A DNA stretch of 64,000 nucleotides from Deltaproteobacteria bacterium (GTDB lineage Bacteria; Myxococcota_A; Polyangia; Polyangiales; Houyiibacteriaceae). Position 1 is the first letter of the stretch. Each line of letters begins with the position of its first letter. The position numbers and the translations under genes are program-made. The notes beneath the pieces are model-generated. The model was not told where the DNA came from. It ran no database searches and saw only the letters and a list, made by a program, of their open reading frames with translations. This document shows positions 10,122 to 51,391 of this stretch, one piece after another. The DNA lies in NCBI GenBank assembly GCA_004283055.1, contig SHLP01000004.1, forward strand, positions 29,362 through 93,361, written 5' to 3'.

Positions 10122-10219
10122 CCGAATTCGGTCATGGTTGACGACCTGGGGCACCGCTGATAGTTTCGCCGGCCGCACGGAGCCGACCTTCTAGGCTGCA
10201 CGCGAGTGGAGGGAATTCC

Positions 10220-34816: not shown

Positions 34817-35749
34817 TCAACAGGCCTGCACGCCGCTTGCACCCCAGGAGACGTGGATAGGATGCAACCCTTCGTCTTTGCAAGCCAGCTCAAAGCTCTT
34901 GGCGGCTTTCGGCTCCACGAAGAAGGCGATCGCTACGTCGCCGCCGCCGGCGCCGCATGGCTTTGCGCTCCCAGAATACTCGGCTGCAAGCTCGGCTGCA
35001 CGCCGGAGGCGGTCTTCGAGGATCGGAGCCCCAGCCGCATCGCCGAGCGCACCCATACCCGCGCAGTAGGCCGCGGCCTCCGCTACGACGCTCAGCGCGT
35101 CCCCCAACTCGAAGGCGGAAGCAAAACGTGTACTCAGGTCGACGAGGCGCTCCATCGATGCGTCGTACCGACCCGGGTCGTTGCGCTGAAGCTCCTTCAC
35201 CTTCCTCAGAAGCTCACTCGTCCGTGCCGCCTGGCCGGTCCAAATCAAGCGGATGTGCAGCTCGTCGGGGGCGGCTAGCGTACGCGTCACCACGCGATCG
35301 CCCTCGCGCTCGAAGCGCAGGAAACCCCCGAAGGTCGAGGCGGCGACATCAACGCCGCTGCCCTGTGGAGCGATGGACGCATGGCCGTCGAAGGCACAGG
35401 CAAACAACCGTTGCAAGGTCTCTCGGTCGTTGAGGTCCCGACCATGGGAGGCGAAGACGGCGCCGGCCGCCGCGGCGGCGGCTGCAGCGGATGAGCCCAG
35501 GCCGAGCTTGATGCGTTCCCGATGAAGCTCGTTCGCGTCCACCTTCAGCGATCGATGCACCGGTCCGAGCTCGGCCTCAGCCAAGCGAAGCGCCGCCTCC
35601 ACCTCTGGGGACATCGCCACCAGCTCGTCCTTCCAAGTCACCCTGACCCGTCGATCGACCGCGGCGACGACTGCGGGCGCGCCTTCGAGCACCGCGTACT
35701 CGCCGCAAAGGAGCGCTTTGCCCGGGGCGCTGGCGCCCGTGGGCGTCAC
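34817..35749 (-). CDS. Phosphomevalonate kinase (GHMP kinase family)
   Basis: APGKALLCGEYAVLEGAPAV N-terminus. GHMP motif KLGLGSSAAAAAAAAGAV. Follows mvk-mvaD. Overlaps mvaD by 4 nt. Confidence 0.8.
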   Translation of the reverse strand: MTPTGASAPGKALLCGEYAVLEGAPAVVAAVDRRVRVTWKDELVAMSPEVEAALRLAEAELGPVHRSLKVDANELHRERIKLGLGSSAAAAAAAAGAVFASHGRDLNDRETLQRLFACAFDGHASIAPQGSGVDVAASTFGGFLRFEREGDRVVTRTLAAPDELHIRLIWTGQAARTSELLRKVKELQRNDPGRYDASMERLVDLSTRFASAFELGDALSVVAEAAAYCAGMGALGDAAGAPILEDRLRRAAELAAEYSGSAKPCGAGGGDVAIAFFVEPKAAKSFELACKDEGLHPIHVSWGASGVQAC

Positions 35750-36735
35750 CGATGCACCTCGACGTCCGGCCCTGGCTTTGCGACCCAGGTCCTCGTTACC
35801 CCCTGCGTTCGATCGAGCGCCTGGCGAACCCGGCTCGCATCACCGACGCCGCAAAGGGCCTTTACGTGGGGCCCGGCGTCCATCGTTGCCCAGACCGAAA
35901 CGCCGCGTTCCCGAAGCCCGCGCACCGTCGCGAGCGCAGCCAGGGTCGCAGGCGCCCAATAGAGGATGGGCGGCGTGGACGTGATTGCGCAGCAGTGAAA
36001 GGCAAGCGTGCTCTGCTCCATCGCCGGGCCGAGCGCGTCGAGGTCGCGCTCCCTGATCGCGCGTTTGATCCTGCGAGACCATCTTGGCGCCTGATCCAGC
36101 CAGGCCTCGTAGTAGGGCGAAGTCTTCCGAGAGCGCTCCATTCCTTCGGTGGATCCGACCTTCTTCTTTCCGGGATCGGTGAGCGCGACCACCAAGCGAA
36201 GGTTCCAGTGCCCTTGCGGCGCGACCGGCCTGGCTGCGAGCTGCGCATCGCCTCGGCTGCCCGCGGGCAGCTCGACGAAGCCACCATAGATCGACCGGGC
36301 TGCCGATGCGCTCGATGCCCGCGCCAAGGCGCTGAGCCGGCGCGCGTTGAAGCGAATTTCTGCGGCAGCGGAGGCGGCAGCCGCAAGGGCGGCAAATCCA
36401 GACGCGCTGGACGCGAGCCCGGCGGCCGTCGGGAAGTGATTGTGGCTGCTGACCTGTGCCCTCAAACGAAGCCGCGCTTCACGGCGAACGCGGTCGAGCA
36501 TCTTGACTACCCGATCGGTCTCGGATTGGGTCGCGCGCCTGCCGTCGAGCCTCAGCAGGTCGGCGGAAAGCGACGGATCGAAGCGGACCCTGGTTTCGGT
36601 CACGAGCTGGTCCAGCGTCAACGAAATGCTCGGCACCGCAGGAACGTTGCGCTTCACGTCGGACTTTCCCCAATATTTGGCTAACGCGATGTTCGCACAG
36701 GCCCGGGCGCTTGCTTCCAACACAGGCTCGCTCAC
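35746..36735 (-). CDS. mvaD: Diphosphomevalonate decarboxylase
   Basis: ANIALAKYWGKSDVKRNVPAVPSISLTL and PTAAGLASSASGFAALA are typical of MvaD. Confidence 0.9.
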   Translation of the reverse strand: MSEPVLEASARACANIALAKYWGKSDVKRNVPAVPSISLTLDQLVTETRVRFDPSLSADLLRLDGRRATQSETDRVVKMLDRVRREARLRLRAQVSSHNHFPTAAGLASSASGFAALAAAASAAAEIRFNARRLSALARASSASAARSIYGGFVELPAGSRGDAQLAARPVAPQGHWNLRLVVALTDPGKKKVGSTEGMERSRKTSPYYEAWLDQAPRWSRRIKRAIRERDLDALGPAMEQSTLAFHCCAITSTPPILYWAPATLAALATVRGLRERGVSVWATMDAGPHVKALCGVGDASRVRQALDRTQGVTRTWVAKPGPDVEVHR

Positions 36736-37628
36736 CCACTCACCTCCGCCGCGAACGCCTCGGGTCCGAGCACCTCGCAGAGCTGCACCGCCAAGTCGTG
36801 CTTCGGCGCGAGCGCAAACATGCAGCCACCGCCTCCGGCACCCGTCATCTTCGCGCCCAAGGCCCCGGCCGACCTAGCGGTCCGGCACATTTCATCGAGC
36901 CTGCTCGTGCAGAGCATCAGGGAGCAGAGGATACTGTGGTTCAAATCGAGCAGCTGACCGAGCGAGATGTGATCGCCGGCCTCGATTGTGAGCCTCGCGT
37001 TGCGCACCAGCACTTCGATCGCCTCGAAAGCCTCGTTCACCCGCCTCGGGTCGTCCGCGAGCTGCCGCGCCACCGACGCGACCATCTCCTTGGTGCTCGA
37101 CGACTCGCCGCTGTAGCCGATCGCCAAGTGCAGCGGTTTGTTGGGGCGAAGCGGCTGCAGAGGCTCGCCTTTGCGATAGAGCGCGACCCCGCCGATCGCC
37201 GACATTGCGTTGTCGATTCCCGATGGATTTCCATGAAAAACGCGCTCCCAGACCAGCGCCGCTTCTGCGAGCTCGGCTCGGGACCGTTCGATGCCCAGCG
37301 CTTCATCGATCGCATCCAGCACAGCCACACCGATCGCTGCGGAGCAACCGAGCCCTGCGCCCGCAGGAAGCTCGACGTCGGCGCTCACCTGCAGCGCGGG
37401 ACGCTCCGGGTAGAGCGAGAGGGCGGCCGCAAAAGCCCGCTCCAGAGGCTCGCGTCCCAAGGGGTCCGGCTCGAGCGACAGGCCCCAGGGGGAAAGGTCC
37501 AGGGTGTTCCGCTCGGCCATCGTCGCTTCGGCGGTGACGCCCCGTTCGATCCCGACGGCGATCGCTGGACAGCCATGAACGACCGCGTGCTCGCCGAGCA
37601 GAATGACCTTGCCCCTGCCAAAGCCCAT
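36732..37628 (-). CDS. mvk: Mevalonate kinase
   Basis: GKVILLGEHAVVHG N-terminus. GHMP motif PAGAGLGCSAAIGVA. C-terminal KMTGAGGGGC. The start overlaps the upstream stop (TGATG). Confidence 0.88.
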   Translation of the reverse strand: MGFGRGKVILLGEHAVVHGCPAIAVGIERGVTAEATMAERNTLDLSPWGLSLEPDPLGREPLERAFAAALSLYPERPALQVSADVELPAGAGLGCSAAIGVAVLDAIDEALGIERSRAELAEAALVWERVFHGNPSGIDNAMSAIGGVALYRKGEPLQPLRPNKPLHLAIGYSGESSSTKEMVASVARQLADDPRRVNEAFEAIEVLVRNARLTIEAGDHISLGQLLDLNHSILCSLMLCTSRLDEMCRTARSAGALGAKMTGAGGGGCMFALAPKHDLAVQLCEVLGPEAFAAEVSG

Positions 37629-38650
37629 CAGCTCCCCCGATCGGTGAGCTGCCGCGTGACCTCTTCGAGTATTCGTTTGCCTCGTTCGTCGAATGGACCG
37701 GCCGCCACGGCGGCTCGGGCCTCGTCGGCCAGGAAGCGGAGCCTGGCTTCGACCTCGGACCTGGCCGCGGTGAGCACTTGCGTCGCCGCTGCGATTTCTT
37801 CGTCCCGTGCGTCGGCACGCCCCCAGACGCCTTGCAGCAGAGCCTGCTCTGCCTCGCTGGGCTCGAGTCGACGGAACGCCGCGATGACCGCGTTGTGCTT
37901 CCCGTGCCGCAGGTCATCACCGGGTTTTCCAGTCTGAGCTGCGCTACCGAAGGTTCCGAGCAGGTCATCGCGAAGTTGAAACGCAACGCCGAGCGGCGTC
38001 GACCATTCGCGCAGCGCACGCATCCCGGCCGCGTCAGCATCGGCCAGGATGCCTCCGAGCTCTGCAGGTCCGCGCGTCGTGTAGCTGCCGGTCTTCAGGT
38101 CGTGCATGCGCTCGACGTCCTCGTCGGTCATGAGGTCGAGCTGCTGCCCCGCGAACACTTCCTTTTGCATTCTCACGAAAAGCGAAAAGCCCTCGGCCTG
38201 CCGGCCCTCTGGAAAGTGGCCCTCGAGCAGGAGCTCCCATCCAAAGGTCGACGCCAAATCGCCGGCGAGGATCCCGAGGCTTGCGCCTAGGTGGTCCTCT
38301 CCATGTTTTTTCTGAAAAGCGTAGTGGACAGCAGGCCCACCACGCCTTTCGCGGTCCTCGTCCATCCAGTCGTCGTGAATGAGGAGATAGGTCTGCAGCA
38401 ATTCGAGCGCCGCCGAGACGACGAGCGTGGGTTTGAGGTCCTCCGAGCTGCTCGCTGCTCTGTACGCGGCCGCGGTCACAATCGGACGGAGCCGCTTTCC
38501 TCCGCGCATCGTGAGGTCGCGAACCTCCGCAACCAGCTCGATGGCCTTCGGAGAGAGCTGCCTCGCTTCCCCGCACTTCGTCTCGAAAAAGCCCTCCAGG
38601 ATGGTGTCAACCTGCGCGCGGATGCGCCCCATCCAAGCCTCGAGTTCCAT
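37628..38650 (-). CDS. Polyprenyl (farnesyl/geranylgeranyl) diphosphate synthase
   Basis: First Asp-rich motif LLIHDDWMDED, second FQLRDDLLG. I prefer the ATG at 38650 (MELEAWMGRI...), because the ORF-track start at 38740 would overlap the divergent fni start. Confidence 0.88.
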   Translation of the reverse strand: MELEAWMGRIRAQVDTILEGFFETKCGEARQLSPKAIELVAEVRDLTMRGGKRLRPIVTAAAYRAASSSEDLKPTLVVSAALELLQTYLLIHDDWMDEDRERRGGPAVHYAFQKKHGEDHLGASLGILAGDLASTFGWELLLEGHFPEGRQAEGFSLFVRMQKEVFAGQQLDLMTDEDVERMHDLKTGSYTTRGPAELGGILADADAAGMRALREWSTPLGVAFQLRDDLLGTFGSAAQTGKPGDDLRHGKHNAVIAAFRRLEPSEAEQALLQGVWGRADARDEEIAAATQVLTAARSEVEARLRFLADEARAAVAAGPFDERGKRILEEVTRQLTDRGS

Positions 38651-38726
38651 TTGCCCTTGCGCCACGGTGTCGGTGTCCTTATTCCGAGCTACGTACACGG
38701 CAGGACGCCGCCGAGCAAGCAACGCG

Positions 38727-39767
38727 ATGAGCGCAGACATCGAGCAGAGAAAAGCGGATCATCTCGATCTGTGTGCAACGGATGAGGTCGCGTTTCGTGA
38801 GCGAACGACGCTTCTCGAATGCGTTCGTCTCGTCCATCAGGCGCTTCCCGAGCACAGTTTCGACTCGATCGATACCAGGGTTCGATTGCTCGGAAAGGAG
38901 CTCCGTGCGCCGCTGCTGATCGCGGCAATGACCGGGGGTCATGCCCGCGCTGCCGAAATCAACCAAGCCCTTGCGTCCATCGCGGATGAGCAGGGCTATG
39001 CGTTCGGACTCGGAAGTCAGCGGGCCATGCAAAAACGTCCGGAGACGGCTTGGACTTACCAGGTACGCAAGCGCGCGCCCGACGTGCTGCTCTTTGGCAA
39101 CGTCGGGGTGGTTCAGGCACGCGATCTCTCGACCGAGGCGATTGCCGAGATGCTGGCGGAGGTCGGTGCCGACGCTCTATGTGTGCATATGAACCCCGCC
39201 ATGGAGCTCGTTCAGCCCGAAGGCGATCGCGACTTCAGCAGCGGTGTTGAAACCTTCCAGCGGCTCTGGGCAGAGCTCGACGTTCCCGTCATTGCGAAGG
39301 AAACCGGCAATGGGGTTAGCCGGGAGGTCGCGGCCCGCCTGCGAGCGGTTGGCATTCGTCATGCGGATACCTCCGGAGCCGGCGGCACTTCCTGGGTCGG
39401 CGTCGAGACCCTGCGCGCAGACGCCGAAGGGCGGGCCCTCGGTGAGGCGCTCTGGGATTGGGGCGTCCCGACCGCGGCCTCGGTCCGATACTGCGTGGAG
39501 GCTGGAATGACGACCATCGCCACAGGCGGCATCCGAACCGGCATGGACGTCGCCCGCGCCATTGCCCTGGGCGCGAGTTGCGCAGGCATCGCGCGCACCG
39601 TCTATCGCGCATTTCTCGACGGCGGCGAGAATGGAGCCCGCTCGTTCTTGCAGGGCATCGAGCGCGAGCTGCGTTCGATCATGCTGCTCTGCGGCGCAAA
39701 AACGATCGAAGAGCTCCAACAGGCGCCGCGGGTCGTCACCGGCGAGTTACGCGATTGGATCGCTTGA
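38727..39767 (+). CDS. fni: Type 2 isopentenyl-diphosphate delta-isomerase (FMN-dependent)
   Basis: I start it at the ATG at 38727 (MSADIEQRKADHLDL...). Contains LLIAAMTGG, KETGNG and ASGGIRTG-like TGGIRTGMDVA. The upstream part of the ORF is a GC shadow. Confidence 0.9.
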   Translation: MSADIEQRKADHLDLCATDEVAFRERTTLLECVRLVHQALPEHSFDSIDTRVRLLGKELRAPLLIAAMTGGHARAAEINQALASIADEQGYAFGLGSQRAMQKRPETAWTYQVRKRAPDVLLFGNVGVVQARDLSTEAIAEMLAEVGADALCVHMNPAMELVQPEGDRDFSSGVETFQRLWAELDVPVIAKETGNGVSREVAARLRAVGIRHADTSGAGGTSWVGVETLRADAEGRALGEALWDWGVPTAASVRYCVEAGMTTIATGGIRTGMDVARAIALGASCAGIARTVYRAFLDGGENGARSFLQGIERELRSIMLLCGAKTIEELQQAPRVVTGELRDWIA

Positions 39768-39777
39768 AGGGTGGCGG

Positions 39778-40791
39778 TCAGTCGTCGGCTTTCGCGGCCT
39801 GCTCGAGCTCAGGCGAGGTGCTGTCGTCGTTGATGGGTGCCGGCTCGAAGCGGAGCAAGTCCTCGACGCGCTCGAGCAGCTCGCCTTCGAAGTGTACCGA
39901 AAAGCGGGGCTCGAGCAGCTTCGTTCGGACGCGCCAGACGATCGGATCTGCCGGATCTCGCAAAACCACGGGCGTGGCGCCAGCAAGCACCCACGGCGAG
40001 CTGAGAATTGCATCGGTCAGAGCCATGCGTACGTTCCCGGCGTCCCGGTAGCCGTCGAGCCGGACGACCACCTCGTGCTCGGCATCGGCGCCCACGTCGT
40101 AGACCATTGGTGCGCCCACCATCGCACGATTGGGGACGGTAATGCGATGGCCCTGCCCGTCCCGCAGCCACGTCGCTCGTAGTGAACGGCCTTCCACCGT
40201 CCCTTGAAAGCCGTCTCCCGAAACCCACATCCCCTTCTTCACACGGCGTTCGGCTGCAAGCACGACGCCCGCCACCACGTCTGCGAACAGGTCGCGAACG
40301 GACCAGCCTACGACGAGCGCAAGTACGGCGAGGGCCCAGAGGATCCAGTTCTTCTCGGCTGGAACCGCTTCGAACACGATCGCCACGAGGAGAGAAAAGG
40401 CCGCGATACGCAGACCGAAGATGAGCGCTCCGAGGACGCTCCGTAGAGGGATGTTCGTGGTGATCCAACTGCGAGCCAGCTCCGTGATGAGAAGCAGCAG
40501 GCCCACAGCGAGCAGCCACAGAAACAAGCTTCGCACGGAGTCACGGCCCTGTGCTTGGAGCGCCTCCCCGCGCGCATCCTCGTCCGACGGGCGCCTCCGC
40601 AGCCAAGGAGGCGGCTCTCGCGATGCCGGATCGCTCGAGGCTTCGGGCTCGTCGCCCTGCGGCGGATGAGTTTGAGACTCCGACGGACTGGGCGCTTCGC
40701 CCACGCGCCTGAGAGGCTGCGCCGCGCTCGGCACCGCGATCAGCCCAACGAGCAGAAGAAAGAGGCCTAGGTATTCGAGCTTCGAAATCAC
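39778..40791 (-). CDS. MscS-family mechanosensitive channel
   Basis: The GTG at 40791 overlaps the stop of the giant upstream gene (GTGA). It has a signal/TM segment, a Pro/Glu-rich region and 3 TM helices. MscS core: VSGDGFQGTVEGRSLRATWLRDGQGHRITVPNRAM. Confidence 0.8.
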   Translation of the reverse strand: MISKLEYLGLFLLLVGLIAVPSAAQPLRRVGEAPSPSESQTHPPQGDEPEASSDPASREPPPWLRRRPSDEDARGEALQAQGRDSVRSLFLWLLAVGLLLLITELARSWITTNIPLRSVLGALIFGLRIAAFSLLVAIVFEAVPAEKNWILWALAVLALVVGWSVRDLFADVVAGVVLAAERRVKKGMWVSGDGFQGTVEGRSLRATWLRDGQGHRITVPNRAMVGAPMVYDVGADAEHEVVVRLDGYRDAGNVRMALTDAILSSPWVLAGATPVVLRDPADPIVWRVRTKLLEPRFSVHFEGELLERVEDLLRFEPAPINDDSTSPELEQAAKADD

Positions 40792-43700
40792 AGGACCCAG
40801 CCCCTCTCCGCGAATATGCGCCCGAGCACCCCTCGAAGGTGAACCGCGATCACGAATGTACCTTCTCTCTCGTCGAGCAAACCCAGATGCGCCAGCCTGC
40901 TGAGCTGCGCCTGTGCGGTATTCACATCGAGTCTGAACAGCCTCGCCTGACCGGCCGCATCCATCCATCCCTCACGGGCGATCTGATAGAGGTTGACTAG
41001 GATATCGTCCGGGAGGCGCCTCACACGCGTGTACGAAGAAGCAGGAATCGGGCCGACATGCACGATGTCATCCTGGATCTCGCGGATCGAGGCGAGCCAA
41101 AGCCGAAGCGCGTCGCGAACGAGGCCTCCCGTCGCTTCGTGCAGCTCGTGAAAATATTGATCATAGGGCCGACGAATTCGGGTAGCGCTCCGAGCGAACA
41201 GCCCCTCGATTGGCGAGCCGTCGCCCCGGTCGAAGGAATGCTCGAATCCGCTCAAGCGATGCCTGGCAATGACGGCGGCCTGCAGCTCCTCCTCGCTGAG
41301 CGGCTCGAGCCGAATGAGCTCCGGAAACGCGTCTCGCAGGGGCGCCACCGTCGAGGCGAAGTTCCAAAAGAGCACGGCTCCGTGCGCGAGCCAGCGCCGC
41401 CGTCCGCCCTCCTCGATGATTCCTTTGACGAAGCGTCGAAGCGGGTCGAAGCCCCCGGGCGCCATCGATAGCATCCAATGGAGTCCGTCCACGACCACGA
41501 GCTGACCTTCCGGTGCATCTTGAAAAATCGCGTCGACATCTGCGACCGCGACCGGCGCGGTGAAGACCACTCGCTTCACGTTCTTCCAACGGCGGCTCCG
41601 TACGATCGCACTCGACACCGCCGCCTTACCGACGCCGTCGACGCCGACCAGCGCAACCGAGCGCAGGCGCCCTTTGACCTCGCTCGACAGGATTGCTTCT
41701 GCTCGCCGAATCTCCTGATCGCGACCGGTCAAGACGTCTCCGGCCTCCATGGTATCGGCGGCGAAAAGACGCCTGTACACCAGCGGCAGTTCTGTGCCCA
41801 CCTCGGGCGCGGAGAAGGTTCCCGCCGACAGCTCCTCGGTCGGCATGGGTCGAGTCAAGCCGAGGCGCTCGCTCCAACGTTCGAGGCGCTCTTCCCCGAA
41901 CAGGGCGCGGAGCCCGCCCCGAAGCTGCGCCTTGAGCCGCTTCCTACGGGGGATTCGCTCCGCCTTGCTCACGATTCGTAGCCCGCTCGCGGCGCGGCGC
42001 ATGGCCTCGAGTCGTGACTTGCTGAAAGAGCCTTCAGCGAGCTCCCCGCGGAGCGATTCCAGAGTTCCGAGTGCGGCGTCGCGCATCTCGCGCTCGATCA
42101 TCGTCGGCCAGCCCGTCGCTTCCGCGCGAATCTCTTCGAGCGAGTTGAAATTGCGCTCTAGTTGGCCGTAGACCATGTCGCGAAGGAGCGTGTGCATCTC
42201 CTCCGGAATCGCCTCGTCATGCACGATTTCGAGCTCGGCGGTCGCCAGCTCGACGTTGAACGCCACGACGCGCTCGAGCTCTTGCAGCACATTGGCCAAT
42301 GGATGGATACGCTCGGCTAGCTCTTGTCGGCTGGCGAGCAGCTTGGGTGCAACGCGGCTGTCGATGTACGTGAGCACGACTTCCCGAAAAGGAACTTCGA
42401 CCTCGGGAAGTGCAGCGGGCAAGCGCCACTCCCCGGTTTGTCGTTGACCGACGGTGACACGATAGCGCGGCGTCAGTCCGCGGCAGGCTTCGACCAGCGC
42501 GTCGAGCAGCGGGGCGATCTTCCTGTCGTCGCTCAAGTCCTCGTATAGCTCGGTCGTGACACGCGCGGCTTCGCCAGCGGCCTTGCTTGTCGGCTCCGTG
42601 GACGTTCGCAGAGCGGTCGCCAGCTGTTCTCCCGAGTAGTTGCTCTCGAGCTCCTCGTTCAACTGGGTCAGCGCCTGCTGAAGGGTATCGCTCACGCGCT
42701 CGACCTGAGACGTAGCCCGGCGTTTCACGGTGTTGGTCAGCCTGAGCACATAGTCGGTTACGCTGTCCTTGATGCGCGCTTCGAGCCCCAATAGCTCGAG
42801 CTCCATCGCCAGCGAGGAGTATTCTGCCGAGCTTGCCTTCCGAAGATTGGATACGTCCTTGGTGAGCGTCTCCATGGCTCGCATCCGTGTTGCGAATCGC
42901 CGGCTCGTACGGCGTTCACCGGTGCGCAGGTCGAGCGTTCCGAACGTCGGAAGGTCTTCCTTCAAATCGACGAAACCGGTCGCGAGGGCGGTTGCGGCAC
43001 GGTGGGTTCCGTCTCCGGTTATTCGCACCGTTTCGTCGAGTGCCAGAGCCAGCTCCTCTTCGACATCGTGACGAAGACGAACCAACTGGCCTTCGAGATC
43101 GGCTTCGGGGTCGGCCGAGATCTCTACGATGTCATCGTATCCCGCGATGACACCGTCGAAGAGACTCCGCGTGCGAGCTGCGAGATGTCGATCGGCTTCG
43201 ACGAAAAGCGCCGCGAGAGCCTCGAGCCGAGCTGGCGCGTCGTAAGATAAACGGAACCGTCCCAGAGCGCGTAGCCGGACTTCGCGAGTCGGCTGGCTCT
43301 GCCCCAGGGTCTTGCGCCAGCCTCGTCGCAGTCGAAGCAAAACGCGGCGTAGACGCTTTGCGATGGAGTCGTCCTCCTTGGTCTCGTAGCTGAGGTCTTC
43401 GTAGGGAGCGACGACGACCAGGGGAAGCTCGTCGACCAGGCCGTCGACGTTCTCGAGCACCGCTTCGGGCGTCCAGGTGAGCTTGGCGAGCGTCACCGAT
43501 CGGCCAAGGACGATACCCCGCCAGTGGGCAGCCAAATCCGACTGGGCCGAGCGCAGCATCGTCACCAGCTCGTCCCGTTCAGCGCCGTCTTCGGCCCGTG
43601 CTTGAACGGTCAAGCGCCGGTGATGGCGAAGGAACTCGCGTCGGAGGTCTCGGAGATACTTTCCGGCGTCGAGCTGGAAATCTCGAAGGGGTCCGGTCGA

Positions 43701-45305
43701 AACCTCGCGGACGATGCTTTGGAGATCCCCGCCCAGATCCTGCACGCGGCTATTGAGCTCCTCGCTCTTCAAGTTCAGCGGTTCGCCCCATAGGTTCTTT
43801 GCGCCGACGTGCTCAGGCCAGGGCTCTAGTTGCTTCGCGGCCCCATCCTCGCCGTCGGGACGCATCGACGGCGGCTTTACCGACAGGTGTCTCGCCGGGC
43901 TCATCGACGCACGGCCCGTCCGAGTTTCGCCGGCCAGGCTCAGTCCGAGCTTGAACATCACCGGCCCGACGAGCTCGTTGATCGCAACGCCGCCGATGAT
44001 CAAGGTTTCGAGCGAGCGGCCGAGCTCGCCGAACTCTCTGCCGATGATGGCGGCCAGCAGGATGGAAACGCCAGCTTGGGAGACGAAACCCATCCAGCCG
44101 AAATCGCGGGTAGCCTCATCCGCCTTGCCGATCCGGGCGCCGACCTTCGTCCCGGAATAGATCGCGAACGTACGGACGGCGACTAGGGCGATTGCAAACA
44201 ATGCCACCTGCCGCAGCTCGTCCAAGTGAAGCTTGGCGCCCGCGAGCGTGAAGAAGACCACGTAGACGGGCAGCGAAAGCCGCTCGACGGTTTCAATGAG
44301 CCGGTGGCCCGTCTTCGAGAAGTTCGAAACGCCAAAGCCGGCGGCAAGAAAGACCAGGACCGGATCCCAGCCGAGCTGGTCGGAAATGAACGAAACCAGG
44401 TACACCACGCCGACGACGAAGATCAGAAGCTCCTGATTGACGTAGCGGATGTAGAGCGCCATCAAGCCGCCCACGACCAGCGCTCCAAATAGGATGGAGA
44501 CGACGATGTGCTGCAGAAGGTAGGACGCGATTCCACCTTCAATGGCGCCCATGCCAACTTGCTGCGCGACGATGACCTGCGCGACGGCGAACGCGACCAC
44601 GACAATCACGTCTTTCAAAACGACAGCCGATAAGACGTTCCGCGTCATCGGGCCCGCGGCCCTCGACTCCATGATGACCGCTATCGTCGCGGCGGGAGAG
44701 GTCGCCAAGGCGACCGAGGCCACCATTGCACCCACGGCGAGTGCCGTCGCCATTGGCAGCCCGGCGACCCCGGGAAAACCGATGTAGGGGACCGCGCCGG
44801 AGATCAGCCAAAAGAAAGCCGTCACGAACACGCCGATCGAGACGACCTGCGCCGCGAGGATCGAGCTGATCGCACGCAGCCCCTTCTTGAGACCCTCCAA
44901 CTTGAGCTCGCCGCCTGCGGTGAGCGCGATCAGCGCGACGGCGAGGGTGTCGAACAGACTGAGCTGCTCGATCACCTCGTCATTGAGAATGCCTCGATCG
45001 AACGGCGCCGGTAGGCCCAAGCCGCTCAGCACCTTGGCCAGCGATGGCCCGAAGACCAGGCCTGCGATCAGGTAGCCCGTGATGTGCGGCAAGCGAATCT
45101 GACCGACCAGGCCGCCGATCGTGTAGCTTGCGAGCACCACGAATCCGAAGGCGAGCATCCCGCTTGGGTCGAAGGGATGCTCCGCGAACTGTTCGAATTG
45201 GTAGAGCGCGACCATTCCGAACAGCAGCAGCACGATCACCGTGATCTGCCGTCGCGCGTGGGTCTCTTCTCCGGGTGGAGGCAAGCTGTACGACCCGGTC
45301 ATCAA
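40788..45305 (-). CDS. Giant fusion protein: CPA2/Kef-like cation:proton antiporter membrane domain, ~700-aa helical region, then P-loop NTPase (ATPase_2/AAA_16/STAND-like) and winged-helix C-terminus
   Basis: A 1505-codon ORF starting at TTG 45305 or, more likely, ATG 45302. The TM domain covers aa 1 to ~460 (LPHITGYLIAGLVFGPSL...). Lead-in VLTGRDQEIRRAEAIL. Walker-A-like GVDGVGKA at nt 41622-41645. Walker-B-like LVVVDG. The C-terminal LSRLAHLGLLDEREG region looks wHTH-like. Confidence 0.85.
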   Translation of the reverse strand: MMTGSYSLPPPGEETHARRQITVIVLLLFGMVALYQFEQFAEHPFDPSGMLAFGFVVLASYTIGGLVGQIRLPHITGYLIAGLVFGPSLAKVLSGLGLPAPFDRGILNDEVIEQLSLFDTLAVALIALTAGGELKLEGLKKGLRAISSILAAQVVSIGVFVTAFFWLISGAVPYIGFPGVAGLPMATALAVGAMVASVALATSPAATIAVIMESRAAGPMTRNVLSAVVLKDVIVVVAFAVAQVIVAQQVGMGAIEGGIASYLLQHIVVSILFGALVVGGLMALYIRYVNQELLIFVVGVVYLVSFISDQLGWDPVLVFLAAGFGVSNFSKTGHRLIETVERLSLPVYVVFFTLAGAKLHLDELRQVALFAIALVAVRTFAIYSGTKVGARIGKADEATRDFGWMGFVSQAGVSILLAAIIGREFGELGRSLETLIIGGVAINELVGPVMFKLGLSLAGETRTGRASMSPARHLSVKPPSMRPDGEDGAAKQLEPWPEHVGAKNLWGEPLNLKSEELNSRVQDLGGDLQSIVREVSTGPLRDFQLDAGKYLRDLRREFLRHHRRLTVQARAEDGAERDELVTMLRSAQSDLAAHWRGIVLGRSVTLAKLTWTPEAVLENVDGLVDELPLVVVAPYEDLSYETKEDDSIAKRLRRVLLRLRRGWRKTLGQSQPTREVRLRALGRFRLSYDAPARLEALAALFVEADRHLAARTRSLFDGVIAGYDDIVEISADPEADLEGQLVRLRHDVEEELALALDETVRITGDGTHRAATALATGFVDLKEDLPTFGTLDLRTGERRTSRRFATRMRAMETLTKDVSNLRKASSAEYSSLAMELELLGLEARIKDSVTDYVLRLTNTVKRRATSQVERVSDTLQQALTQLNEELESNYSGEQLATALRTSTEPTSKAAGEAARVTTELYEDLSDDRKIAPLLDALVEACRGLTPRYRVTVGQRQTGEWRLPAALPEVEVPFREVVLTYIDSRVAPKLLASRQELAERIHPLANVLQELERVVAFNVELATAELEIVHDEAIPEEMHTLLRDMVYGQLERNFNSLEEIRAEATGWPTMIEREMRDAALGTLESLRGELAEGSFSKSRLEAMRRAASGLRIVSKAERIPRRKRLKAQLRGGLRALFGEERLERWSERLGLTRPMPTEELSAGTFSAPEVGTELPLVYRRLFAADTMEAGDVLTGRDQEIRRAEAILSSEVKGRLRSVALVGVDGVGKAAVSSAIVRSRRWKNVKRVVFTAPVAVADVDAIFQDAPEGQLVVVDGLHWMLSMAPGGFDPLRRFVKGIIEEGGRRRWLAHGAVLFWNFASTVAPLRDAFPELIRLEPLSEEELQAAVIARHRLSGFEHSFDRGDGSPIEGLFARSATRIRRPYDQYFHELHEATGGLVRDALRLWLASIREIQDDIVHVGPIPASSYTRVRRLPDDILVNLYQIAREGWMDAAGQARLFRLDVNTAQAQLSRLAHLGLLDEREGTFVIAVHLRGVLGRIFAERGWVL

Positions 45306-46792
45306 CGCCTCCAGAACCCTGGCAAGATTAGCGCGAAGAGGGTGAAGAACTCGAGCCGTCCGAGCAGCATGGCCATCGCGAAAAACAATTTGCTACCCAC
45401 CGAGTACGCGGCGAAGTTGTCAGGCCCCAAGTGAAATGGTGCGGGGCCCATGTTCGACAGGCAAGTCAACATTGCCCCGAAAGCCGTGGGCACCGGAACG
45501 CCCTCGACGAGCGTCACGAAGAGCAGACCGAATCCGATGCATCCCATGTAAATCAAGAAGAACGAAGCCACATCGGAGAGGACCTGGTTGCTGATCGAGG
45601 CTCTCCCCATGCGGACCAGTTGGACCGTCGCTGGCCGAAAGCTCTTTTGGATTTGCGCGATCGCCTGCTTTCCCATCAAAACGGCCCGCTCGATCTTGAT
45701 GCCCCCTGCGGTGGAGCCGGAGCACCCCCCGACGAACATCAAGAGGATGACGATGGTCAGCGCAGTCGAGCTGTATACGCTGTAGTCGTCCGTGCCGTAT
45801 CCGGTCGACGAGATCGTCGTTGCCACCATGAAAAAGGAGTAGCGAAACGAGGTCAGGAGCTCGTCGTGCACGCTGAGGTTTAGAATCGTCAAAACGATGA
45901 CTGCCGCGAAGACGATCGCGACGTACCATCGGAACTCGATGTTCCGCACGAGCGACCGCCAGTTGCCTGTCCGCAAGAGGCCGTAGTAGAGCCCGTAGTT
46001 CACGGTGCCTATGAGCATGAAGCTTGCAATCACGTACTCGACGGCCGCGCTGTCGAAGCCGCCGACCGAGCTGTCCAGCGTCGAAAAGCCTCCCGTCGAC
46101 ATCGTCGTGAACGCGTGGCAGACCGCATCGAACAAGTCGAGGCCGAGAATCTTGAGAAGAGCGATCTCGATGATCGTGAGCGCGCCGTAGAGCTTCCAGA
46201 GGGCGAATGAGGTCTCGGCAATGCGAGGCCTCAAGCCCTCTGCCGTGGTTCCTGGTACTTCTCCACGAAACAGATGTTTGCCGCCGGCGCCGAGGTTCGG
46301 AAAGACGGCGACGAACAGGACGACGATACCCATCCCCCCGAGCCATTGAATCAGGGAACGCCAGAGCAGCAGAGGCCGTGATAGGCGCCCTTCGATGTCC
46401 GTGATCACCGTTGCACCCGTAGTGGTCAGGCCGCTGACCGACTCGAAAAAAGCGTCGTCAACGGACATGCCCGCTCCGAGCACGAATGGAACGGCGCCGC
46501 ATGCCCCCGCCGCAACCCAAATCAAGCTCACCGCAAGAAGGGCCTCGCGACGCGAGATTCGCTCGGAGACAAACCGATTTCCGTAGAGAAAGGCGGATAG
46601 GCCGACGACCGAGACGATGATTGCGGAGAGTGCAAGCTCTGCCGCGCCGCCCTGTGGTCGACTCGGATCGGGCGCAAACTGGTCCCAGATCATCCCCACG
46701 CCGGCGCAAAGTGCGATCATCACACCTATGCCGAGCACGACGGCTCCGACGGGCCGGATCACGCCACGAAAGTCTCGCGATTGCGTGCTCAC
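45302..46792 (-). CDS. trkH: Trk-type potassium uptake membrane subunit
   Basis: 496 aa. The GTG start overlaps the trkA stop (GTGA). Contains SGLTTTGATV, LIQWLGGMGIVVLFVA, STGGFS and SSTGYGT, i.e. repeated selectivity-filter-like motifs. Confidence 0.92.
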   Translation of the reverse strand: MSTQSRDFRGVIRPVGAVVLGIGVMIALCAGVGMIWDQFAPDPSRPQGGAAELALSAIIVSVVGLSAFLYGNRFVSERISRREALLAVSLIWVAAGACGAVPFVLGAGMSVDDAFFESVSGLTTTGATVITDIEGRLSRPLLLWRSLIQWLGGMGIVVLFVAVFPNLGAGGKHLFRGEVPGTTAEGLRPRIAETSFALWKLYGALTIIEIALLKILGLDLFDAVCHAFTTMSTGGFSTLDSSVGGFDSAAVEYVIASFMLIGTVNYGLYYGLLRTGNWRSLVRNIEFRWYVAIVFAAVIVLTILNLSVHDELLTSFRYSFFMVATTISSTGYGTDDYSVYSSTALTIVILLMFVGGCSGSTAGGIKIERAVLMGKQAIAQIQKSFRPATVQLVRMGRASISNQVLSDVASFFLIYMGCIGFGLLFVTLVEGVPVPTAFGAMLTCLSNMGPAPFHLGPDNFAAYSVGSKLFFAMAMLLGRLEFFTLFALILPGFWRR

Positions 46793-48129
46793 TCACCCCT
46801 CGGTCGAAAAAGCCGCTCTACGGTCGCCCGTGATTCCTTGGTAGTCATCAGGATGACGCGGTCCCCGGGATGCACGACGTCTTTGCCGTGCGGAATGATC
46901 ACGTCGTCGCCGTGCACGATCGCGGCCAAGAGCGAGCCGCGCGGCAGATTCATGCGGTGCAGAGGCTTGTTCACAGCGCGGCACTTCGGGCTTGCCGTCA
47001 GCTCCACGACTTCCGCCTGGCCGTCCTCGAGCACGGTCAGGCTGTGGAGGCCGCCGCCTCGCGAGAAGCGAAGGATCTGGTCCGAGGCCACGGTGCGAGG
47101 CGAAAGGACGATGTCGATGCCGAGTTGACGGTAAATCGATGCGTAGTCCGCGCGCTGCACGATCGTGGCGGTTCGTTTGCACCCAGAGCGCTGAGCGAGG
47201 AGTGCAGCCATCAGGTTGATTTCGTCTTGCTTGGTGACCGCTGCGAACAGGTCGTAGGTGCCGACCTCCTGCTCCTCGAGGAGCGCGCCGTCGGTCCCGT
47301 CGCCGTGCACCACTTCGATGCCCTGAAACTCCGCGCTTATCTCCTCGGCGACCTCGAGATCGCTTTCGATCATCAAGACCGTGGCTTGTTGCTGGAGCAG
47401 CTCGCGTGCGAGCGCCTTGCCGACCACGCCCCCACCGACGATGCAGACGCGACGCGCTTCGCGTTCCTTGCTGAAGAGACGCTCGGCGGCAAGCACGCCT
47501 TCCGGTCGACCGATCAAATACACGCGGTCTCCTTTGACCAACACGTCGGCCCCACCGGGGACGAACAGCTCGCCGTCGCGGACCACGGCGCTCACCAGGG
47601 TGTGTGGCGGTAGCTCGAGCGAGGAAAGCGGCTTGTTCAGTACGCGAGATTCGTCGAGGTCGATCTGCACGAGCTCGACCCGATCCTGCGCGAGGTCGAC
47701 GACGTCCGAGGCGCCGTACGAGCGCGCGATGCGGCTCAGCTCCTGCGCGACGAGAACACGGGGATTGATCACGACGTCGACGCCCAGCAATCCGTAGCGG
47801 ATGCCATCGGTCCACTCGGACCAGGCCGTCCCTTGAACCCGCGCAACGACGTGTTTTGCGCCAAGCTGCTTGGAAGCCAGCGCAGCGATGAGATTCATCT
47901 CATCGTGGTTGGTCACCGCCACGACCAGGTCAGAGCGACCCACGCCGGCGATCTTGAGCAGGGTTTCGCTCGCGCCGTAGCCGACGATCGATGCGACGTC
48001 GTAGTGCTCCTCGGCATATTGCACCGCCTTTGCGCTCGAATCGACGGCGATGATGTCATGCCCTTCTTTGTCGAGGACGCTCAGCAAGTGACGACCGACT
48101 TCGCCCATACCAATGACGACGATGTTCAT
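46789..48129 (-). CDS. trkA: Trk system NAD-binding regulatory subunit (two RCK/KTN repeats)
   Basis: Contains MNIVVIGMGEVGRHL...DIIAVD and a second Rossmann motif VCIVGGGVVGKALAREL. 446 aa. The ATG overlaps the upstream stop (ATGA). Confidence 0.92.
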   Translation of the reverse strand: MNIVVIGMGEVGRHLLSVLDKEGHDIIAVDSSAKAVQYAEEHYDVASIVGYGASETLLKIAGVGRSDLVVAVTNHDEMNLIAALASKQLGAKHVVARVQGTAWSEWTDGIRYGLLGVDVVINPRVLVAQELSRIARSYGASDVVDLAQDRVELVQIDLDESRVLNKPLSSLELPPHTLVSAVVRDGELFVPGGADVLVKGDRVYLIGRPEGVLAAERLFSKEREARRVCIVGGGVVGKALARELLQQQATVLMIESDLEVAEEISAEFQGIEVVHGDGTDGALLEEQEVGTYDLFAAVTKQDEINLMAALLAQRSGCKRTATIVQRADYASIYRQLGIDIVLSPRTVASDQILRFSRGGGLHSLTVLEDGQAEVVELTASPKCRAVNKPLHRMNLPRGSLLAAIVHGDDVIIPHGKDVVHPGDRVILMTTKESRATVERLFRPRGE

Positions 48130-49466
48130 TTGGCCCCCACTTCAATCGATGTTTGAGAGTCGGCGGGCTTGAGCTCGCGCTGGATTTCACCCTCGTCCGC
48201 GAGCAGGCCCCTGAGCAGCCGCGGCGCGATCAGGTCGTTGACGATCACCGAGCCCAGGACCACCGAGTAGGCGAGGTTTGCCGCCTCACCGTGATAGACG
48301 AGGCGAAACGACACAGCCATCGCCAGGGTGACGTCACCGTGGGCCAAGAGGCCGCGGAACAGGTCCTTTCGCAGGCTGGTTCCCCAGCCCGCGATGAGGC
48401 TCGCGATCCACTTTGCCCCGGTGCGTGCGGCCAAAAAGGCAGCGAGCGCGACCAAGGTCGGCACCAGCGGTGTCGGCAGCCAAAGCGCGCCTGCAAAGAT
48501 GAGGAGCACGATCGTCATCGGGCGCTCGGTCGATTCGAGCGTCGTGTGCAAGAGCTGGCCACCTCGGGCGAAATTCACCAGCACGAAGCCCATCGAAAGG
48601 TTCACGGCTAAAGGAGATAATTCGAGAAAATACGCGCCCCCGGACGCAAACGCGATGATCCCAACCAGTGCTAGGAAGCGGGAGTTGTCCGATTCGTCCC
48701 CCGCGAGGAAGAGCGAGAACAGGAAACCGAGCGCGGCGCCGAGCAAGACCGTGACCCAGGCCCACAGTGCGGGCGAGTAGTCTTTCGCGTCGGGCGCGTT
48801 CTCGTGGAACACGCAAAAAATCAAGCCAAATGCGAGAATGACGGCGATGTCCCCGAGGCGCGTTCCGTTTCGAAGCAGCGAAGCGAGGCGTCCGCTGATT
48901 TCGTAGCGCCTCGCGAGGAGGTCGAAGGGCTCCGTCGAATCTGCTGCCGCAAAGCAGGCCAGCGCCGCTGCGCTCAGCGCTGCGCTGCGAGTCGTGGTCT
49001 GTACCCAGTCGCCGAGCGTGAAGAAGTAATACGCTCCGAATCCGACCGCTAGACCCGGCAGCAGGTGATGCAGGAAGACGACGCGCCACGTCGCCGGGTC
49101 GAGCCGCTGAAGACTTGCGAAGTCGAAGTCGGTTCCGCGAAGCAAGCCGACCCAGCCGGCGGCAAGGGCGATGATCGGCAGCAGTCCCGTTACGTTGTCG
49201 AACGCGTGAATCGCTGGGAAGGCCGGACCGAGCAGGAATCCTAGCAGCAGGTATTCGGCGCCGCTCACGACGAGGAAACGACGCTGCAAACGCTCGACCA
49301 CATTGTGGGCAAGCACGTAGGCCACGCCGATCACGATGACCAGCAAGACCACCGTGCCGAGCTCGCCAGCGACCCCGTTCTTTGCCGGTCCGCTCGCGGC
49401 ATTTGCGACGCCGGGCAGTGCCACCCACAGGAGCGCGACTGCAGTCAGAAATAGACTCCCCACCAT
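48126..49466 (-). CDS. Cation:proton antiporter-like (Na+/H+ exchanger fold) membrane protein without RCK domain
   Basis: 446 aa, about 12 TM helices. EYLLLGFLLGP resembles the CPA TM motif. No cytosolic domain. Confidence 0.75.
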   Translation of the reverse strand: MVGSLFLTAVALLWVALPGVANAASGPAKNGVAGELGTVVLLVIVIGVAYVLAHNVVERLQRRFLVVSGAEYLLLGFLLGPAFPAIHAFDNVTGLLPIIALAAGWVGLLRGTDFDFASLQRLDPATWRVVFLHHLLPGLAVGFGAYYFFTLGDWVQTTTRSAALSAAALACFAAADSTEPFDLLARRYEISGRLASLLRNGTRLGDIAVILAFGLIFCVFHENAPDAKDYSPALWAWVTVLLGAALGFLFSLFLAGDESDNSRFLALVGIIAFASGGAYFLELSPLAVNLSMGFVLVNFARGGQLLHTTLESTERPMTIVLLIFAGALWLPTPLVPTLVALAAFLAARTGAKWIASLIAGWGTSLRKDLFRGLLAHGDVTLAMAVSFRLVYHGEAANLAYSVVLGSVIVNDLIAPRLLRGLLADEGEIQRELKPADSQTSIEVGAK

Positions 49467-49541
49467 GTCCGCTCAATTGTGAAGAAGAAGCGTCCGAAGC
49501 GGTAGTTTCGCGCTGGACAGCTGTTTAGCCCATCCGGGGGG

Positions 49542-50207
49542 CTAGGCGCGCAGCCCCTCGAGCACGATCGAGATCAGCCCCTTCGTGGTTTCGATGGGGT
49601 CCATCTGAATCTGCTTGCGAACAGAGGCCAGGGCGAGCGCTTCGACGGCGCCCAGAACGGCAAGCGCGCTCACGCGAGGGTCGGAAATCGTCACGAACCC
49701 TCTGTCGGCAGCGATTTGGCTGAGCGTCATCGCCCTGTGGTCGAGCTCGTTTGCCAAATCCGAGATCGCCTGGCGCGCGATCGTCGCCGGGGCTCGCCGC
49801 TCCTGAAGATAGAGGCACATCGCGTCTGGATAGAGGGCGAGCGCGCCGACCAAACGGTTGCCCAGCTGTCCATAGGCCTCGACCGCATCCTCTCGACCGC
49901 CTGCCTGTCGAAGCCGCGCATCGCAGTCCTGAAGGGCTTCGACGGTGGTGCTCGCAATCGGCGCGACCACTGCCTCGACCAAGTCGGCTTTGTCTCGGAA
50001 ATAGCGGTAAAAGTTGCCCTTAGCCATGCCGGCTTCGCGAGCGACCTCGTCGATGGTCACCGCCTCGATCCCTCGCTGCAGAAACAGCGACAGACCAGAG
50101 TCGATGAGGTCTTGGACGCGCTTGCGCCGGTTCAGATCTCGCTTGCCGCCCAACGCACCGGGGCGTTCTACGGGGCCGGCGCGCCTTGGCCTTCTTTCGT
50201 CATCCAT
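49542..50207 (-). CDS. TetR-family transcriptional regulator
   Basis: HTH region GIEAVTIDEVAREAGMAKGNFYRYFRDKADLV. I prefer the ATG at 50207 (MDDERR...), which has AGGAG 7 nt upstream. Confidence 0.88.
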   Translation of the reverse strand: MDDERRPRRAGPVERPGALGGKRDLNRRKRVQDLIDSGLSLFLQRGIEAVTIDEVAREAGMAKGNFYRYFRDKADLVEAVVAPIASTTVEALQDCDARLRQAGGREDAVEAYGQLGNRLVGALALYPDAMCLYLQERRAPATIARQAISDLANELDHRAMTLSQIAADRGFVTISDPRVSALAVLGAVEALALASVRKQIQMDPIETTKGLISIVLEGLRA

Positions 50208-50370
50208 CGAGTCGCTCCTAACGGGCTCCGAGCCTCTCAGATGCTCGATTATGGGGCGTCTCGGACCCAGGTAAAGGGTCAAAGACGAAAATATTGCGCC
50301 TGAGGGGCCGGGGTATTGGAATGTCGCTTCGTGCCGGAGAAAGCTCGATAATTCGTGATGTTACACGTGA

Positions 50371-50399
50371 TTGACAGGGCAGGTGTAGACCCCTAAGAC
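50371..50399 (+). promoter_or_regulatory. Candidate sigma70 promoter for lipA (TTGACA-N17-TAAGAC)
   Basis: Consensus -35 TTGACA at 50371-50376 and TAAGAC at 50394-50399. Direct repeat CGTGAT at 50354-50359 and 50366-50371 abuts the -35. By eye only. Confidence 0.3.
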
Positions 50400-50427
50400 C
50401 GTATCGTTGGACCGATGGGAGCCCCGA

Positions 50428-51384: not shown

Positions 51385-51391
51385 GGGGGAG

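Follow-up and report, generated by a model that had tools for sequence, protein, structure and literature searches.

What is a cytoplasmic tail of about 1000 residues doing on a protein that resembles a cation:proton antiporter, and is the antiporter really what it serves? The question is raised by one gene in the 64,000-nt stretch of Deltaproteobacteria bacterium contig SHLP01000004.1 analyzed here (the window), where a single uninterrupted open reading frame (ORF) of 1505 aa (40788..45305, minus strand, stop codon included) joins two units: a divergent exchanger domain of the cation:proton antiporter (CPA) superfamily at aa 1-465 and a second unit at aa ~470-1505, which we call X. A sequence-only reading of this DNA had taken the protein, here named CPA::X, for a Kef/CPA2-type antiporter with an NTPase as its regulator. 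In our analysis this view proved too narrow: X is an independent family of ~1000-aa cytoplasmic proteins, composed of a helix bundle, an AAA+ module, and a winged helix, for which the gene of an MscS-like channel is the constant partner and the CPA fusion a lineage-specific addition.

X within and beyond the CPA fusion

CPA::X starts with a TTG codon and continues for 1505 codons in one frame. Its start overlaps the stop of the TrkH gene by 4 nt and its stop overlaps the GTG start of the MscS-like gene by another 4 nt (GTGA); because of these overlaps at both ends, we regard CPA::X as embedded in a translationally coupled operon, whose order on the minus strand is TetR, CPA paralogue, TrkA, TrkH, CPA::X, MscS-like. 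Base composition at the locus is unremarkable, with a G+C content of 0.62-0.65 that is the same as in the flanks. Using aa 470-1505, we retrieved 153 homologues from NCBI, ENA, JGI, and Logan assemblies, nearly all of them ~1500 aa long, equipped with PF00999, and 45-95% identical to the query. Over 100 independent assemblies of Myxococcota keep the fused ORF intact across this range of identity, which rules out a frameshift or an artefact of assembly, and the continuity claimed from the sequence of the window is borne out. The source names of these homologues are only "cation:proton antiporter," "Kef-type K+ transport system membrane component KefB," or "hypothetical," with no annotation covering the 1000-aa tail.

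A scan of the GTDB species-representative collection (one genome per species), for which a conserved basic helix of X, YLRDLRREFLRHHRRL, served as the search pattern, provided 79 genome loci, most of which encode the fused protein (best, 95% identical). All 79 come from metagenome-assembled genomes (MAGs), nearly all labelled Myxococcota, Polyangiales, Sandaracinaceae, or "delta proteobacterium," and the host organisms of all sequences compared in this work are likewise uncultured MAGs. The gene order of the window is kept in nearly all of these loci and in L001 and L003 at 49-50% identity, and synteny as a whole persists from 95% down to ~40% identity. TrkA (46789..48129, minus strand, two TrkA_N/TrkA_C pairs, assigned by Pfam and synteny) and the K+ uptake membrane subunit TrkH (45302..46792, minus strand, Pfam TrkH E=1.7e-50 and synteny) lie directly upstream of X in most fused loci and in several loci with a stand-alone X.

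That X also exists without an exchanger domain emerged from a profile of aa 470-1505, which matched 2079 representatives at E<=1e-3 in a database of 1.84 billion cluster representatives (clusters at 50% identity), 1257 of them at E<=1e-10 and 248 at E<=1e-30. Among the best 150 of the 2079, which were inspected, full-length matches fell into two classes. Proteins of ~1450-1570 aa, in which the match begins at about aa 470, are fused to a CPA domain; proteins of ~990-1040 aa, in which it begins at aa 15-35, have an initial Met with a short hydrophilic leader and lack any membrane domain. The basic helix YLRDLRREFLRHHRRL is visible in the stand-alone proteins, too. A word-indexed search with a profile of stand-alone X returned 9 proteins only and is given little weight for taxonomic breadth; "Deltaproteobacteria bacterium" is the only taxon given by the sources of remote members.

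The gene following X in the window encodes an MscS-like channel (39778..40791, minus strand; 337 aa from the GTG at 40791; Pfam MS_channel_2nd, E=7e-11). Although its ORF had been listed as extending to 40968, translation probably starts at the GTG at 40791, where GTGA joins the start to the X stop. The N-terminal third of the product begins with a signal-like helix and continues as a low-complexity stretch rich in Pro, Glu, and Ser, and the gene diverges much faster than its neighbours, with ~58% identity in L008 (10109-10948) compared to 94-96% for X and 98% for TrkA. We detected it by a stop-to-stop scan with a hidden Markov model built from seven Pfam-verified MscS-like neighbours, and in 70 of the 71 loci with at least 900 nt past the X stop an MscS-like frame runs on from that stop (the exception being L077). 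The association extends to loci with stand-alone X, where the MscS-like gene follows in L004-L007, L084, L087, L088, L091, and L092, and where complete TrkA, TrkH, X, MscS-like cassettes were found in L004, L006, and L007, and by tblastn in L083. In L090 the MscS-like gene lies directly upstream of X instead of downstream. Every remote relative checked, some with a canonical Walker A, has an MscS-like gene adjoining X, and in L084, L087, L088, L091, and L092 this gene is directly downstream of X with no Trk or CPA gene nearby. Because the pair persists without nearby Trk or CPA in L087, L088, L091, and L092, X and the MscS-like channel would seem to form the evolutionary core, to which TrkAH and the CPA fusion were probably added in sub-lineages.

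X is also joined to a second, unrelated transporter family. The 1700-aa protein P0279 fuses an AA_permease domain (PF00324, E=1e-49, with a weak SLC12 match) to a region at residues 1058-1700 that is homologous to X (hhalign probability 99.5%, E=3e-22), and here again an MscS-like gene comes next, with a 4-nt overlap. This AA_permease::X fusion is a single observation, to which a split counterpart lends support: P0285, a relative 64% identical to P0279, is found in a 969-kb contig in the order AA_permease, X, MscS-like. About 3.5 kb upstream in the same contig stand an MscS-like gene and then an X paralogue (E=1.6e-46 to the stand-alone profile). We take the combination of PF00324 and SLC12 to be the signature of cation-chloride cotransporters (CCCs), the volume regulators of animal cells. 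The recurring theme of the neighbours of X is ions and cell volume.

Some loci showed further features. Locus L093 (1-10848; ENA ERZ25039500 contig_13827) holds two X/MscS-like pairs of opposite internal order within 11 kb, namely MscS-like and X (1085 aa) and, 1.5 kb on, AA_permease, X (P0285), and MscS-like. A YceI-like gene or domain is located just downstream of the MscS-like gene in several stand-alone-X loci (L004, 12807-13442; L007, 5792-6436; L084, 9940-12327; L088, 13117-13818), and in L084 the YceI-like and MscS-like domains share one ORF. The CPA::X of L077 (JACKEI010000001.1, a Sandaracinaceae MAG; X at 7001-10153), the only one that lacks both TrkA/TrkH upstream and an MscS-like gene downstream, is perhaps a second, relocated copy in that genome.

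Folds and motif states of CPA::X

We modelled the C-terminal part of the protein (aa 1150-1505) with AlphaFold2 from 62 homologues, at a pLDDT of 88 and a pTM of 0.86. The model contains an alpha/beta base at aa ~1196-1333 (41307..41720; this and all following features of CPA::X are on the minus strand) with a lead-in helix and strands beta1 to beta5, a lid at aa ~1338-1405 (41091..41294), and a C-terminal winged helix at aa ~1424-1505 (40791..41036) made of three helices, a beta hairpin, and a terminal helix. The base has the beta5-1-4-3-2 topology which, together with a helical lid, defines the AAA+ fold. Foldseek matched the model to 633 PDB chains at E<=1e-3, among which RuvB (3e-8), Orc1/Cdc6, RFC, the gamma complex, and Hda rank highest; these leading matches have a probability of 1.00 and E values of about 1e-8 to 1e-6, and the alignments cover 300-400 columns over base, lid, and winged helix (more than 330 for RuvB and Orc1). 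Because structure prediction gives all three of these elements, the call of a P-loop NTPase with a terminal winged helix in the sequence-only reading was correct, and the module is predicted to be an AAA+ domain of the initiator/clamp-loader kind.

At the sequence level, the NTPase shows only faintly. In the window protein, AAA_16 of Pfam matches aa 1192-1236 with E=0.004 and 18.3 bits against a cut-off of 32.6, while six of nine clade members show AAA_16 matches (best E, 1.5e-5) and the remote members P0266 and P0276 just reach the AAA_22 cut-off, with 27.8 and 27.4 against 27. The Orc1/Cdc6 model TIGR02928 matches only aa 1190-1237, with E=0.013 and 14.4 bits against 181.3. Similarly, a profile of the cytosolic part compared to the PDB by sequence recovered only the lead-in and P-loop of ClpB/ClpC, at E 0.07-0.3. 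As to STAND NTPases (NB-ARC/NACHT/MalT type), in which NTPase domain, helical arm, and winged helix precede sensor repeats at the C terminus and Walker B reads hhhhDD/DE, the winged helix of X is the C terminus, with no repeats beyond it, its Walker B has no second acidic residue, and matches to NB-ARC and nSTAND reach E 0.001-0.3 only and are confined to the P-loop. Hence, of the ATPase_2/AAA_16/Orc1-Cdc6/STAND-type label given previously, the AAA_16/AAA_22/Orc1-Cdc6 kind holds with respect to fold, whereas membership in the Orc1/Cdc6 family proper and in STAND was rejected by the curated models.

The motifs on which the label had been built are all in place, including the lead-in VLTGRDQEIRRAEAIL at aa 1191-1206, the P-loop GVDGVGKA at exactly the claimed position (aa 1221-1228, 41622..41645), the Walker B-like strand LVVVDG (aa 1269-1274, 41484..41501), and the winged-helix stretch at aa 1438-1482. 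In an alignment of 31 diverse homologues from the clade of the window protein, Walker A reads G-x-D-G-V-G-K-[A/S/G], with an invariant K1227 and a variable residue at the Mg-coordinating position that is [ST] in the canonical GxxxxGK[ST]. Walker B departs from hhhhDE in having Gly after the Asp, and the Asp itself is replaced by N, S, E, G, or T in relatives. R1323, the sole Arg between beta4 and beta5 (the box VII region) and placed as a finger by motif position only, is absent from the invariant and near-invariant columns. The lid helix, on the other hand, carries GGLVRDAL (aa 1393-1400, 41106..41129), which is invariant in the clade, is tentatively assigned to sensor 2 by motif position, and has in R1397 a residue whose setting presumably resembles the "GDAR.A" motif of Orc1/Cdc6. 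Among 270 proteins of the wider family, Walker A varies between canonical forms (GPPGVGKS, GESGSGKT, GRPGVGKS) and unrecognizable ones (VSLDRQAALA, APELPSRR), Q, H, or S often takes the place of the sensor-2-like Arg, and in many lineages the P-loop is wholly degenerate with the rest of X conserved. This pattern would be explained if an ancestrally functional AAA+ domain had become a binding-only switch in some lineages, including that of the window, and elsewhere a pseudo-ATPase; it is not what a motor would show. For the window clade, in which K1227 and R1397 are invariant and the catalytic residues absent, a switch rather than a motor is most likely, and the earlier suggestion of a sensor that binds nucleotide and does not hydrolyze it fits this motif state.

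The region between membrane domain and AAA+ module, in which no domain had been recognized from the translation, remained without one. Its AlphaFold2 model (aa 465-1175; pLDDT 84.4, pTM 0.73) shows a disordered linker of ~50 residues followed by almost nothing but long helices (up to 87 residues) and a few short strands, and the long-helix bundle at aa ~515-1165 (41811..43763) is predicted to be a novel fold. No Pfam family matched it beyond noise in single members (Virulence_fact, BAR_4, MnmE_helical), and a Foldseek search of the model against the PDB gave nothing better than E=0.3; designed bundles, LeoA/BDLP stalks, and ClyA/SmhA appeared as generic long-helix matches only, at E>=0.3. The best-conserved motif of the region, judged by its invariant columns, is the basic helix YLRDLRREFLRHHRRL at aa 550-565 (43611..43658).

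At the N terminus, PF00999 (Na_H_Exchanger) matches aa 60-451 (43953..45128) with E=3e-24 and 85.9 bits against a cut-off of 26.2, over profile positions 3-369 of 375, which span the core of 12-13 transmembrane helices, in agreement with the previous assignment of a CPA-superfamily membrane domain, whose hallmark LPHITGYLIAGLVFGPSL is located at aa 72-89. The closest solved structure found with a whole-family profile is plant SOS1/NHX7, a CPA1 member (E=2.6e-6, transmembrane helices [TMs] 4 to 7); no KefC or NapA structure matched that profile at E<0.01, and a single-sequence phmmer search of the CPA domain against the PDB gave nothing at E<=0.001. For reference we used the eight-position CPA motif of Masrati et al. 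(PMC6181914), in which position 7 is the ion-binding Asp on TM5 (94% of CPAs), position 6 is N, D, or Q (ND/DD/QD), position 8 is the Lys or Arg partner on TM10, and CPA1 members (NhaP/NHE/NHX) have Glu at position 5, Arg at position 8, and an ATDP-type break in TM4, along with the roles described for the QD motif and K307 of KefC (PMC11150392). By alignment to SOS1 and conservation, position 7 of the window protein is D232, invariant in the 31 homologues and opposite the Asp of the SOS1 ND motif. Position 6, however, is K231 (K231-D232, 44610..44615), a near-invariant and atypical Lys in the window clade, where wider fused relatives also have ED, QD, ID, MD, or LD. Position 5 is A227 instead of the CPA1 Glu, and the unwound TM4 segment opposite ATDP of SOS1 reads A201-T-S-P204 (44694..44705; HMMER alignment to SOS1 and conservation table), with Ser in place of the CPA1 Asp. 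At position 8, S344 may stand opposite K307 of KefC, as judged from a manual alignment.

The Kef/CPA2 part of the sequence-only reading thus did not survive: no TrkA_N match was found in the CPA::X ORF at E<=1 with Pfam, so that the RCK/KTN domain of Kef proteins is missing, the best solved match is a CPA1 protein, KefC is not matched, and the motif is KD, unlike QD (Kef), DD (NapA/NhaA), or ND (CPA1). The membrane domain is a CPA-superfamily member that, judged by these motifs, falls in neither the Kef nor the canonical CPA1 group. Next to the binding Asp, K231 might serve as a tethered cation, and exchange of K+ (or Na+) for H+ would be the default guess from genomic context. In several remote CPA::X lineages (including P0162, P0166-P0168, P0190, P0192, P0199, and P0259), positions 6-7 have become NN or GE/VE, with loss of the TM5 Asp, and in these the membrane domain may be a non-transporting anchor or sensor.

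A proposed role for X in potassium and turgor control

Potassium and turgor control in bacteria is seen as the work of separate devices: uptake falls to Trk/Ktr/Kdp, exchange to Kef/CPA, and release to MscS/MscL, and regulation acts on each alone, through RCK domains, c-di-AMP, glutathione adducts, or membrane tension. X is genetically tied to all three kinds of device: to an MscS-like gene nearly always, to TrkAH often, and to a CPA domain or SLC12-like permease by fusion sometimes. Such linkage would imply that a mechanosensitive valve and ion transporters are coordinated directly, at the protein level, by an AAA+-type module. We propose, at a probability of roughly 45%, that X is a nucleotide-state switch or scaffold that couples the MscS-like channel to transporters within a potassium/turgor homeostasis module. 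In such a module TrkAH would take up K+, the CPA domain would exchange K+ (or Na+) for H+, and the MscS-like channel would be the release valve; X would bind ATP or ADP with slow or no hydrolysis and physically link the channel to the transporters, thereby coordinating uptake, exchange, and release, and the CPA fusion would hold X at the membrane in fixed proportion to the exchanger. While we observed the architecture, folds, motif states, and gene linkage, we infer that X contacts the channel and binds nucleotide, and likewise which ion the CPA domain carries and in which direction regulation runs.

Several observations weigh against this proposal. Since the P-loop is destroyed in many members, nucleotide sensing cannot, as far as motifs tell, be the universal function of X. 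Because the ion site is atypical (K231-D232 and ATSP) and the essential Asp is lost in some fused lineages (NN), the membrane domain may be no normal exchanger and in some lineages only an anchor. The winged helix resembles DNA-binding MarR/TrmB types in the sequences of remote members, which leaves room for a transcriptional role. In L077, neither Trk nor an MscS-like gene adjoins X. Finally, adjacency and fusion indicate a functional link and not a mechanism; physical contact between X and the MscS-like channel, TrkAH, or the CPA domain to which it is fused is at most suggested by them.

Of these points, the winged helix leads to a different view of X, namely as a membrane-associated one-component transcription regulator that, in the manner of large ATP-binding regulators (MalT/LAL, Orc1-type DNA binders), senses the state of the transporter or channel via its helical domain, binds DNA, and controls how strongly the operon or osmotic genes are expressed. 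The winged helix at the C terminus is modelled with confidence, remote members give sub-threshold matches to MarR_2, TrmB, HTH_24, and DeoR in this part, one X member is named an ArsR-family regulator by its source, and AAA_16 is, we assume, the NTPase type of MalT-like regulators. We nevertheless consider this role improbable, given that a dedicated TetR regulator already lies upstream and that such regulators are not known to contain a conserved helix bundle of 650 aa. In RuvB and Orc1/Cdc6-like AAA+ proteins, moreover, a terminal winged helix is core architecture and not always a sequence-specific DNA reader, and the translational coupling of X to the channel gene at nearly every locus suggests subunits in fixed proportion rather than a regulator. 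Alternatively, the CPA domain might be the sole working part, with X as a private regulatory tail in place of the RCK domain of Kef and with MscS and Trk neighbours that are coincidental in a salt-stress operon. The covalent fusion, kept in more than 100 assemblies, would agree with this, and so would the precedent of SOS1 with its long cytoplasmic tail. Large cytoplasmic tails on CPA exchangers are known also from the RCK domain of KefC (PMC11150392). Yet X keeps its MscS-like neighbour where it has no CPA domain at all, is joined to an unrelated transporter family too, and has outlasted the essential CPA Asp in some fused lineages, so that we hold a private tail to be just as improbable.

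Both remaining alternatives start from the P-loop. X shares its fold with ring-forming AAA+ proteins (RuvB, clamp loaders), and some remote members have a canonical Walker A (GPPGVGKS, GESGSGKT) and reach the AAA_22 cut-off, as might be expected of an active ring motor or chaperone that assembles, remodels, or extracts the heptameric MscS-like channel or the transporters by ATP hydrolysis. In the window clade, however, the Ser/Thr after the P-loop Lys, the catalytic Glu, and apparently also a conserved Arg finger are missing and the Walker B Asp varies, and full degeneration of the P-loop in many lineages has left the remainder of X conserved, which makes a motor very unlikely. Still more far-fetched, in our view, is an abortive-infection pair, in which a STAND/AAA+-like sensor opens the channel and thereby kills the infected cell. 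Several defence systems likewise combine a large P-loop protein and a small membrane protein, and tiny matches to mad3/8, Avs2, and PtuA of PADLOC (E 0.002-0.08) exist, although these span only about 20-60 residues round the P-loop; in PADLOC-DB, neither X of the window nor its MscS-like neighbour has a match, and remote members contribute only such P-loop scraps. Instead, the locus has a housekeeping character: it is syntenic and apparently vertically inherited across the whole order, beside trkAH and isoprenoid genes, its base composition equals that of its flanks, and degenerate P-loops are common.

If the coupling of channel and transporters by X is accepted, it is tempting to speculate further that X represents a new class of cytoplasmic partner for MscS-family channels, in which an AAA+-derived nucleotide switch, carried by a long helical arm, would dock beneath the channel and wire it directly to TrkAH, CPA exchangers, and CCC-like permeases, forming one turgor-control supercomplex that couples K+ release, exchange, and uptake mechanically and energetically. 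We give such a supercomplex a reasonable chance, though one well below even; were it to exist, the CPA::X fusion of the window would be its Rosetta stone. Should the proposed coordination by X be confirmed, the MscS and CPA fields would gain a new class of regulator. In any event, the linkage of X offers a first functional handle on a large family, with 248 clusters at E<=1e-30 and about 2000 at E<=1e-3.

How does CPA::X compare to systems already described? With KefC/KefB (CPA2 with a C-terminal RCK/KTN domain) it shares a CPA membrane domain with a large cytoplasmic module attached at its C terminus, which binds a nucleotide or other ligand (for CPA::X, as predicted), and a role in K+ homeostasis, which for CPA::X is suggested by genomic context. 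It differs in having KD instead of QD, no RCK/KTN domain, and a tail of ~1040 aa with an AAA+ fold. SOS1/NHX7 is its best match among solved structures in the membrane domain and likewise has a partly helical cytoplasmic regulatory tail, of ~700 aa. That tail, in contrast, contains a cyclic-nucleotide-binding-like domain and not an AAA+ module, and SOS1 has the CPA1 Glu where CPA::X has A227, is eukaryotic, and is without an MscS partner. RuvB, Orc1/Cdc6, DnaA/Hda, and RFC resemble X in their base, helical lid, and C-terminal winged helix; X has besides a sensor-2-like motif, GG.VRDAL, and a lead-in (D.L.GR..EI.RA...L) similar to that of ClpB/ClpC and Orc1. However, identity to the RuvB/Orc1/RFC group is only 13-18%, the Walker A of X ends in Ala, its Walker B Glu and apparently also a conserved Arg finger are missing, and its AAA+ module is carried by a 650-aa helix bundle together with a transporter, while genes for DNA replication or repair are not linked to it. 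TrkA/KtrA/RCK-type regulators of K+ transporters and the accessory proteins of MscS-family channels, finally, are cytoplasmic nucleotide binders (as X is predicted to be) that regulate K+ flux and share an operon with a membrane subunit, and TrkA itself is part of the operon in the window; their fold is Rossmann/RCK rather than AAA+, and X is far larger.

Cytoplasmic nucleotide-binding regulators of K+ transporters are well known from the RCK/KTN domains of Trk, Ktr, and Kef, so that the general idea is not new. What would be new is an AAA+ module in the role of such a regulator, the long-helix domain, the constant MscS-like pairing, and the fusions to two unrelated transporter families. We know of no AAA+ partner of an MscS-like channel. 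The sequence-only reading knew of no description of an antiporter tethered to such an NTPase, and this agrees with our results: in the literature we found no description of an antiporter/AAA+ architecture or of an MscS-AAA+ pairing, and none of the four features just listed turned up there or among source names.

Other genes in and around the operon

The first gene of the operon encodes a 446-aa membrane protein (48126..49466, minus strand) without a Pfam match. BLASTP aligned it to aa 269-462 of CPA::X (E=9e-8, 24% identity, collinear over ~190 residues), which identifies it as a divergent paralogue of the CPA domain. It precedes TrkA in nearly all fused loci and is missing from the stand-alone-X loci. 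As CPA exchangers are dimers, a heterodimer of this paralogue with the fused CPA domain is conceivable.

A promoter and terminator scan of 39000-51500 gave counts no better than shuffled sequence. The TetR-family regulator (49542..50282, minus strand; Pfam TetR_N, E=1e-16) lies 76 nt upstream of the operon on the same strand and is kept directly upstream of it in close relatives as well as in L001 and L059. Upstream of TetR there is a 318-aa ORF (50218..51174, minus strand) with no Pfam or PADLOC match. On its other side, the operon is adjoined by an isoprenoid (mevalonate-pathway) cluster (35746..39767), comprising a diphosphomevalonate decarboxylase-like gene (35746..36735), a GHMP kinase (36732..37628), and a polyprenyl synthetase (37628..38740); a convergent gene of the FMN_dh family (38427..39767, plus strand) could be a type-2 isopentenyl diphosphate (IPP) isomerase.

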